Shown here: positions 4,669 through 5,207 of the stretch, piece by piece
Layout of the letters: every line of letters starts with the position of its first letter
How positions within the stretch are numbered: the stretch's first letter is position 1
IMG/VR virus record: IMGVR_UViG_2695420643_000022
DNA from: a virus
Taxonomy: Duplodnaviria > Heunggongvirae > Uroviricota > Caudoviricetes
DNA: 9,262 bases
Direction: 5' to 3' (one strand)
Made by a program: the position numbers and the translations under genes
The notes under the pieces: model-generated
Database searches by the model: none
What the model saw: only the letters and a program-made list of their open reading frames with translations
Told to the model about the DNA's origin: nothing

Positions 4669-5207
4669 CTATTGTTGAACTGGATTAAACCAGTAATTCT
4701 CTATTGCTCTTATTGTTACCATCGGATGATTGCCGGGGGTTATTTTAAGTTCGGGAGGAAAAGGCTCTCCATCAGCAGCCATCATTGAGTATGTGAAATC
4801 CGCCGACGCAGTCCCTTTCATGATAATTCCGAATTTTTCAAGTAATGAGAGCAGTTCCGGTAATCCTGTGTCATCTGAATAACTTTCCTCATAGAAAGAA
4901 GCGATTGCCGCAGGAGATGACAGTTCTCGCTCTGCAATTTTTTTGTAGTTTTCCAGAATTCTTTTTTTGAATACTTTTCCTCGACATGAAAACCCATCAC
5001 CGAGGCAATCCGCTTTGCAGTTTCTTCAGTATTCTGGTTGTTTGTTACCGAAACAGAGTACAATCCGGTAAACGCATCGCGCACATTACGAGCCATATTA
5101 TCAATGTATTTCTTCGTTGCAGATTCTAATTCAACTTCGTTCAGACGTTGGTGAAGTGCATGTGCTGCAATTTCCTGGATTTCTTTTAGTAAATCTTTAA
5201 ATTCCAT
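4669..5207 (-). pseudogene. Hypothetical 179-aa gene interrupted by a -1 frameshift at an A7 tract (pseudogene, homopolymer error, or programmed -1 frameshift)
   Basis: Frame A (129 aa) begins MEFKDLLKEIQEIAAH... with SD GGAG, but after two A7 runs (plus 4962-4968 and 4938-4944) its tail is Cys/His/Met-heavy and G-poor at codon position 1. The -1 frame continues RILENYKKIAERELSSPAAIASFYEESYSDDTGLPELLSLLEKFGIIMKGTASADF...NPVQQ and looks coding. That frame has no start codon for 47 codons upstream of its first ATG. Confidence 0.5.

Follow-up and report, generated by a model that had tools for sequence, protein, structure and literature searches.

The window, the 9,262-nucleotide stretch of DNA analysed here, comes from a DicB/Qin-type lambdoid prophage of Escherichia coli O157:H7 and its relatives, of which it forms the early-left (immunity-to-integrase) arm, transcribed on the minus strand. 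In the matching genome, RefSeq annotates in order an HTH repressor, relB, relE/parE, a DUF1391 (ydfA-like) gene, ydfB, a gene encoding a 129-aa protein, a small convergent ORF, dicB, a DUF1482 gene, the gene for an 823-aa exonuclease, a DUF4224 gene, and the integrase gene (Table 1). The small RNA DicF lies between the gene for the 129-aa protein and dicB, which confirms the Qin/DicB-type operon layout, and from its position between ydfB and dicF/dicB this gene holds the slot of ydfC in the Qin prophage of K-12. YdfC of K-12 was considered as a homologue and rejected: despite its equivalent position between ydfB and dicF, the pairwise E value is 0.055 and the two are not detectably homologous. 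The relB/relE-ParE pair is missing from the K-12 Qin arrangement and from L002 and L003, two related chromosomal loci described below. The longest homopolymer of the window lies in a homologue of WP_001205823.1 that adjoins the gene for an IstB/DnaC-like ATPase and is annotated by RefSeq as intact in the matching genome.

Table 1. Coordinates of the gene, its sequence features and its neighbours in the window.
Feature	Position	Strand	Remarks
0-frame ORF, 129 aa	4818..5207	minus	RefSeq: hypothetical protein WP_000394511.1
Stranded C-terminal half (ancestral residues 91-179), continuing in the -1 frame	4669..4937	minus	from homologue alignment
50-codon ORF inside the -1 frame (ancestral residues 130-179 only)	4669..4821	minus	separate gene in some records (P0168)
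Second A7 run, site of the lesion	4938..4944	minus	one A short of the A8 in the closest intact relatives
First A7 run, codons S-K-K	4962..4968	minus	in-frame coding sequence
GAGGA, part of codons V-E-E	4978..4982	minus	9 nt 5' of the first A7
GGAG Shine-Dalgarno sequence	5214..5217	minus	6 nt 5' of the gene's ATG; read from sequence
DicF small RNA	4058-4109	minus	Rfam RF00039, 77 bits, full length; between the 129-aa gene and dicB
relB / relE-ParE toxin-antitoxin pair, 63 + 95 aa, overlapping ORFs	5781-6259	minus	between the repressor gene and the ydfA-like gene
Small convergent ORF, 61 aa, WP_001133046.1	4446-4631	plus	just downstream of the gene
A8 run, longest homopolymer of the window	8759-8766	plus	inside a gene running off the window end

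Minus-strand coding does not end with the 129-aa ORF but carries on in the -1 frame to a stop at 4669. The -1 frame is open from well 5' of two runs of seven adenines (A7) down to this stop, so that slippage at either run would lead into the C-terminal domain. Its first ATG, GTG or TTG is found at 4821, where the ATG overlaps the 0-frame TGA as ATGA (4821-4818). Both A7 runs start at codon position 3 of the 0 frame and read as A AAA AAA, and the sequence GAGGA stands upstream of the first. The -1-frame continuation, the ATGA overlap, the phase of the first run, and the GAGGA had all been picked out in the original prediction and are present in the window. Runs of this length are not enriched: shuffling predicts 7.3 A7 runs for the window, and it contains seven.

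Intact versions of the gene were identified by comparing the conceptual fusion protein with 5.8 billion protein clusters and then aligning the DNA of the relatives. The closest are encoded by single ORFs: P0001 (94% identity, 179 aa), P0002 (84%, 179 aa), and P0003 (80%, 180 aa). Six more intact proteins of 177-186 aa, some of them from Salmonella, bring the total to nine (P0001-P0009). Each of these full-length homologues (63-94% identity) is encoded in one frame across the break region, with no shift needed. L002 and L003, which are 80%-identical DNA loci on two E. coli chromosomes, are likewise annotated by RefSeq as single 186-aa CDSs. In the DNA alignment, P0001, P0002, and P0003 have ACT(A/G)CAAAAAAAATTGCA at the break where the window has ACTACAAAAAAATTGCA; aligned over the same place, P0001 (three independent contigs) reads ACTACAAAAAAAATTGCAGAG, P0002 and P0003 read ACTGCAAAAAAAATTGCAGAG, and the window reads ACTACAAAAAAATTGCAGAG. 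The same difference separates the window from loci L006-L011, which carry A8 against A7 in the window at 4938-4944 and whose flanking DNA is otherwise near-identical. These loci with the intact A8 gene also have an 80-aa version of the convergent ORF, which overlaps the last 20 nt of the gene.

The ancestral reading at the break would be ACA AAA AAA ATT GCA (T K K I A), with the A8 at codons 88-91, and the junction predicted for A8, WKTTKKIAERE, matches P0001 and P0140. Compared with the DNA of L002 and L003, the window is one base short just 3' of the first A7, between GGAAAA and CAAA. A slip at the second A7 would yield exactly the ancestral ...WKTTKKIAERE..., whereas a slip at the first would replace EFWKTT with RILENY. 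Being in A AAA AAA phase, the second A7 is also where leaky -1 slippage back to the ancestral sequence would most naturally occur. These alignments place the frame change at the second A7 (4938-4944) rather than the first. The 0 frame had been taken as valid for about 82 codons; alignment with the homologues extends this to about 90, through ...EFWKTTKK. Residues 1-90 of the 129-aa product are thus the authentic N-terminal part, and residues 91-129 are an out-of-frame tail.

The region around the first A7, GTC GAG GAA AAG TAT TCA AAA AAA GAA TTC TGG AAA (VEEKYSKKEFWK), is identical and in frame in L002 and L003. This run is conserved and in frame in every intact homologue checked at the DNA level except P0003 (TCGAAAAAAG). 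GAGGA is kept in most of the intact homologues checked in this way and is missing in P0003 (AAAGAGAAA), the DNA of which reads AAA GAG AAA TAT TCG AAA AAA G over the region. Since the first A7 is read in frame in intact homologues, it is not the frame-change site. Furthermore, GAGGA and the first A7 occur in most intact genes and are absent in P0003, which marks them as coding sequence rather than evolved signals.

The -1-frame continuation matches the C-terminal half of the intact homologues and is therefore real coding sequence, almost undecayed. Downstream of the lesion there is one window-specific substitution in about 270 nt, R163M, which falls in the motif GNHPRV at an arginine invariant in the intact homologues. 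The carriers are 99.8-100% identical and so too little diverged for dN/dS on the stranded frame. Such scant decay fits a recent mutation hitch-hiking with a successful prophage; it also fits continued selection on, or use of, the frame.

No Pfam family scored above threshold for either the 129-aa product or the fused 179-aa protein. Residues 1-95 match phrog_1363 (E = 3.6e-36) and phrog_2151 (E = 6.3e-33); PHROGs 1363, 2151, and 9419 are families of unknown function, and PHROG 1363/2151 represents an N-terminal module common to early-left-operon proteins of lambdoid phages. With HMMER, 1.84 billion representatives were searched exhaustively, and the 31 relatives recovered all match via this module. 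They are 50-208 aa long, apart from one outlier of 1011 aa (P0201), which indicates that the module occurs both alone and joined to different C-terminal domains. For the C-terminal domain (4669-4937; residues ~95-179 of P0001), all relatives among the 1.84 billion representatives belong to its own 50%-identity cluster. An AlphaFold2 model built on a 29-sequence alignment has a mean pLDDT of 49 and a pTM of 0.33; the N-terminal helical hairpin alone is moderately confident, and the model gives no confident fold for the C-terminal domain. The lesion falls at about residue 90, just past the shared module, so the 129-aa product keeps the N-terminal module intact and may retain partial function.

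Among sequenced phages only distant relatives were found, with 34% identity over residues 1-127, and a literature search for 'ybl81', a source name of family members, returned nothing. Several family members have been frameshifted independently at A-runs: P0017, P0016, and P0093. P0017 belongs to the 186-aa type, its first tract being A6 (SKK|NSGKWPNA), while P0093 is of the 212-aa type and is shifted at a lysine run. These lesions may be real or may be sequencing artefacts; A-run indels recur in the family.

The A7 allele is both widespread and stable. Tract length was assessed with 91-93-nt probes differing in this feature alone, a single indel at this length lowering identity to below 99%. 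The 92-nt A7 probe has an exact match in 384 of the 386 complete E. coli genomes carrying the allele, and none of the 386 has an exact match to the A8 or A6 probe. The weakest match to the A7 probe spans 92 nt and therefore reflects a substitution, not an indel. Three variants with 99.8% identity have SNPs elsewhere and keep the A7, and a 661-nt probe around the gene is 100% identical in many complete genomes. Carriers include O157:H7 (EDL933, EC4115, TW14359), O121:H19, O103, and O111:H11, as well as non-STEC isolates from pig and fish with the same prophage. One of the 386 allele-carrying records is a plasmid record rather than a chromosome.

Contig counts in a collection of 15 billion proteins are at least 1000 for the 129-aa product, and at least 1000 and 287 for two point variants of it. 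With A8, this allele occurs on 2 + 1 contigs (P0140, O111:H11 CVM9534; P0144, an O157:H7 draft), and with A6 on one (P0011), the DNA of which was read (L015). Non-A7 versions thus account for about four contigs against more than 2,287 for A7, or ~0.2%. The single A6 record and the rare A8 drafts may be homopolymer errors; O111:H11 is represented by a complete genome with A7 and by a draft assembly with A8. A P0001-type probe (A8 and a single SNP) had no match in complete genomes, a result that concerns the exact allele alone, as its flanks were without a 28-nt exact word.

We consider it very likely that the window carries a fixed, stably inherited A8-to-A7 deletion in a prophage accessory gene of unknown function, with no programmed recoding signal. 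An inactivating mutation or simple indel had been listed among the original options, and it is the one borne out by P0001-P0003, all single ORFs with A8. The ancestor would have been a single ORF of 179 codons in the early-left operon, with its A8 at the position given above, from which one A was lost, most plausibly via replication slippage in the homopolymer. Ribosomes starting at the ATG at 5207 would follow the ancestral frame as far as ...EFWKTTKK, append 39 unrelated residues, and terminate at 4818. The resulting 129-aa product would keep the conserved N-terminal helical module and lack the C-terminal domain. The mutation probably became fixed in this prophage type and was carried with it into many E. 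coli lineages. A few ribosomes, or transcripts altered by RNA polymerase slippage, might restore the full-length product, which would represent unselected leakiness of the sort to be expected from any run of this kind. Some observations sit less comfortably with a deletion: the A7 allele is vastly commoner than its A8 counterpart and occurs in unrelated backgrounds, the stranded frame is almost undecayed, and both A7 runs are in slippery phase, the first of them with a GAGGA. The A7 allele is at least not counter-selected, and it could be favoured.

It is improbable that the locus instead encodes two functional proteins, of 129 and 50 aa, the second made by termination-reinitiation at the ATGA (4821-4818). 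Such an arrangement would account for the overlap of the ATG with the 0-frame stop and for the annotation of the 50-aa ORF in some records (P0168, on 659 contigs). However, the 50-aa ORF corresponds to ancestral residues 130-179 and so begins within the C-terminal domain. Its methionine is an internal residue (in GIIM) conserved in P0001-P0009 rather than a new start, there is no convincing Shine-Dalgarno sequence 5' of the ATG at 4821, and ancestral residues 91-129 would be lost.

The leading option of the original prediction was programmed -1 frameshifting, with a GAGGA at a dnaX-like distance from the first A7. Under this explanation, taken as a dnaX- or IS3-like mechanism, the A7 would be functional, and the 129-aa product and a 179-aa fusion would be made in a set ratio, stimulated by the GAGGA, a hairpin, or both; the fusion would be recognisable by its predicted junction peptide IAERELSSPAAIASFYEESYSDDTGLPELLSLLEK and the 0-frame product by its tail peptide LQSENCHLLR. 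Several observations favour it. Both A7 runs fit the X XXY YYZ pattern in phase, so the slippery heptamer is present at the true frame junction, the second A7 (4938-4944), and the GAGGA lies 9 nt 5' of the first, inside the range of 6-17 nt scanned for Shine-Dalgarno-like stimulators by others (PMC4066793). The open -1 frame encodes a genuine and undecayed C-terminal domain, the A7 allele is stable and widespread, and IS3-family elements use A AAA AAA, at which frameshifting reaches 25% with a strong pseudoknot (PMC4066793).

Nevertheless, the need for a shift is not conserved: the diverged homologues are all single ORFs, the nearest with A8. The original prediction had itself named uninterrupted A8 ORFs in homologues as a refutation of its frameshift, and P0001-P0003 have exactly these. 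The first A7 and GAGGA, being in-frame coding sequence in most of the intact genes checked, would there merely promote truncation if ribosomes slipped. No Shine-Dalgarno-like stimulator is peculiar to the frameshifted allele, since GAGGA and the first A7 are common to most intact homologues checked, and none was found 5' of the second A7 in the window. Nor was a stimulatory hairpin detected, the minimum free energy (MFE) of the 60-nt stretches after each A7 being no better than that of 200 dinucleotide shuffles (z = -0.56 after the second run and -0.31 after the first; pseudoknot-free folds). The imperfect hairpin previously described after the second run is thus not above the shuffled background. 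A screen for conserved frameshift motifs yielded five prophage clusters, and the window's gene is not among these candidates (PMC4066793). Programmed frameshifting is consequently regarded as quite improbable.

Published reporter data give some idea of the frameshifting to be expected from the A7 runs. In E. coli, AAAAAAA supports 0.405% frameshifting without a stimulator, 0.82% with the stimulators of IS911, and 24.8% with the IS3 pseudoknot (PMC4066793, Table S3; Sharma et al. 2014). By analogy with these values, each A7 run of the window allele is expected to leak at a few tenths of a percent, and the low value of ~0.4% for a bare A7 speaks against programmed frameshifting. Prominent slippage by bacterial RNA polymerase occurs at runs of about nine or longer, and A7 is shorter (PMC5009743). 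Genes of E. coli are depleted in A7 and T7 runs, and transcriptional slippage or a high indel mutation rate has been suggested as a possible reason (PMC4066793). Trace full-length protein may therefore arise from leaky slippage, with no sign in these comparisons that it is under selection.

It is conceivable, though we give it little credence, that A7 is a favoured, attenuated form of the gene, in which the C-terminal domain is removed from almost all of the product while the two phased A AAA AAA runs, one of them preceded by the GAGGA, allow a full-length trickle of ~1%, in the manner of a 'savior indel' (PMC5009743). If true, attenuation might for example relieve the toxicity of an early-left-operon protein in lysogens. 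It would also account for the lack of decay in the stranded frame and for an excess of A7 over A8 of several hundred to one in unrelated lineages of E. coli.

Slipped-strand phase variation, in which the tract would toggle between A7 (off or truncated) and A8 (on) at high frequency in the manner of a contingency locus, had also been put forward. A6, A7, and A8 versions of the allele do exist in public data (P0011, P0121, P0140, P0144), and A-tracts are a known type of mutational hot-spot (PMC4066793). Against this, 384 of the 386 complete genomes have the exact A7 and none the exact A8 or A6, non-A7 versions amount to about four contigs against more than 2,287, and the complete O111:H11 genome has A7. 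The ~0.2% level of variants fits rare mutation or homopolymer miscalls, and phase variation is not supported. A tract of 7-8 nt is, moreover, short for phase variation in mismatch-repair-proficient E. coli, and this explanation is very unlikely. Finally, a homopolymer sequencing or assembly error in one record, also raised at the outset, can be practically discounted. Homopolymers are error-prone on several platforms, but the identical A7 recurs in 384 complete genomes that many laboratories produced over many years, EDL933, EC4115, and TW14359 among them.

If a deletion is accepted, the annotation of the locus needs correction, as the 129-aa (WP_000394511.1 and variants) and 50-aa 'genes' are fragments of one ancestral gene of 179 codons. 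The locus is also a useful negative control for the prediction of frameshift sites: it has two phased heptamers, a Shine-Dalgarno-like sequence at dnaX-like spacing, and a coding -1 frame, yet comparison with its relatives shows a plain indel. It otherwise carries little biological weight, as a further case of a homopolymer lesion in an accessory gene of a prophage.

The window shares features with several known systems. In the 'savior' indels of the herpesvirus TK G-run and of endosymbiont genes subject to poly(A) transcriptional slippage (PMC5009743), as possibly here, a homopolymer indel combined with low-level slippage could give a trickle of full-length product. The window differs in giving no sign that the trickle matters or that the indel brings an advantage (PMC5009743, Atkins et al. 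2016). The orfA-orfB pairs of IS3-family elements such as IS600 and IS911 (A AAA AAA/G) have the same class of heptamer, and a -1 shift likewise fuses one ORF to a start-less downstream ORF. In IS3 elements, however, the two-ORF layout and the stem-loop or pseudoknot are conserved across diverged members, whereas the diverged relatives of the window's gene are single ORFs and no structure was detected. An IS3-family element is present at this very locus in E. coli E105, which carries the same prophage (L017, 2928-4141). It is inserted in ydfB, immediately upstream of the A7-allele gene, and its annotation includes a programmed frameshift and an AL1L pseudoknot, which places a genuine -1 frameshifting site beside a spurious one.

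The resemblance to E. coli dnaX lies in the in-phase slippery heptamer of lysine codons and in the GAGGA about 9-10 nt 5' of one A-run. dnaX combines A AAA AAG with an upstream Shine-Dalgarno-like element and a downstream hairpin, while the window has A AAA AAA and no stable hairpin. In the window the Shine-Dalgarno-like element precedes a run that intact homologues read in frame, and the need for a shift is not conserved. The consequences differ too: a shift in dnaX shortens the product of an intact long ORF, but in the window it would repair a broken one.

The closest parallel is with prophage pseudogenes caused by homopolymer indels. As in these, a one-base change in a mononucleotide run is accompanied by intact orthologues elsewhere and by stable inheritance with the prophage, and sibling genes have independent A-run frameshifts (P0017, P0016, P0093). 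Unlike them, the remnant in the window has no pseudogene label in RefSeq, where it appears as a normal 129-aa CDS. In addition, the truncated allele is far commoner here than its intact form, and it preserves an N-terminal module that is also found in short stand-alone relatives.
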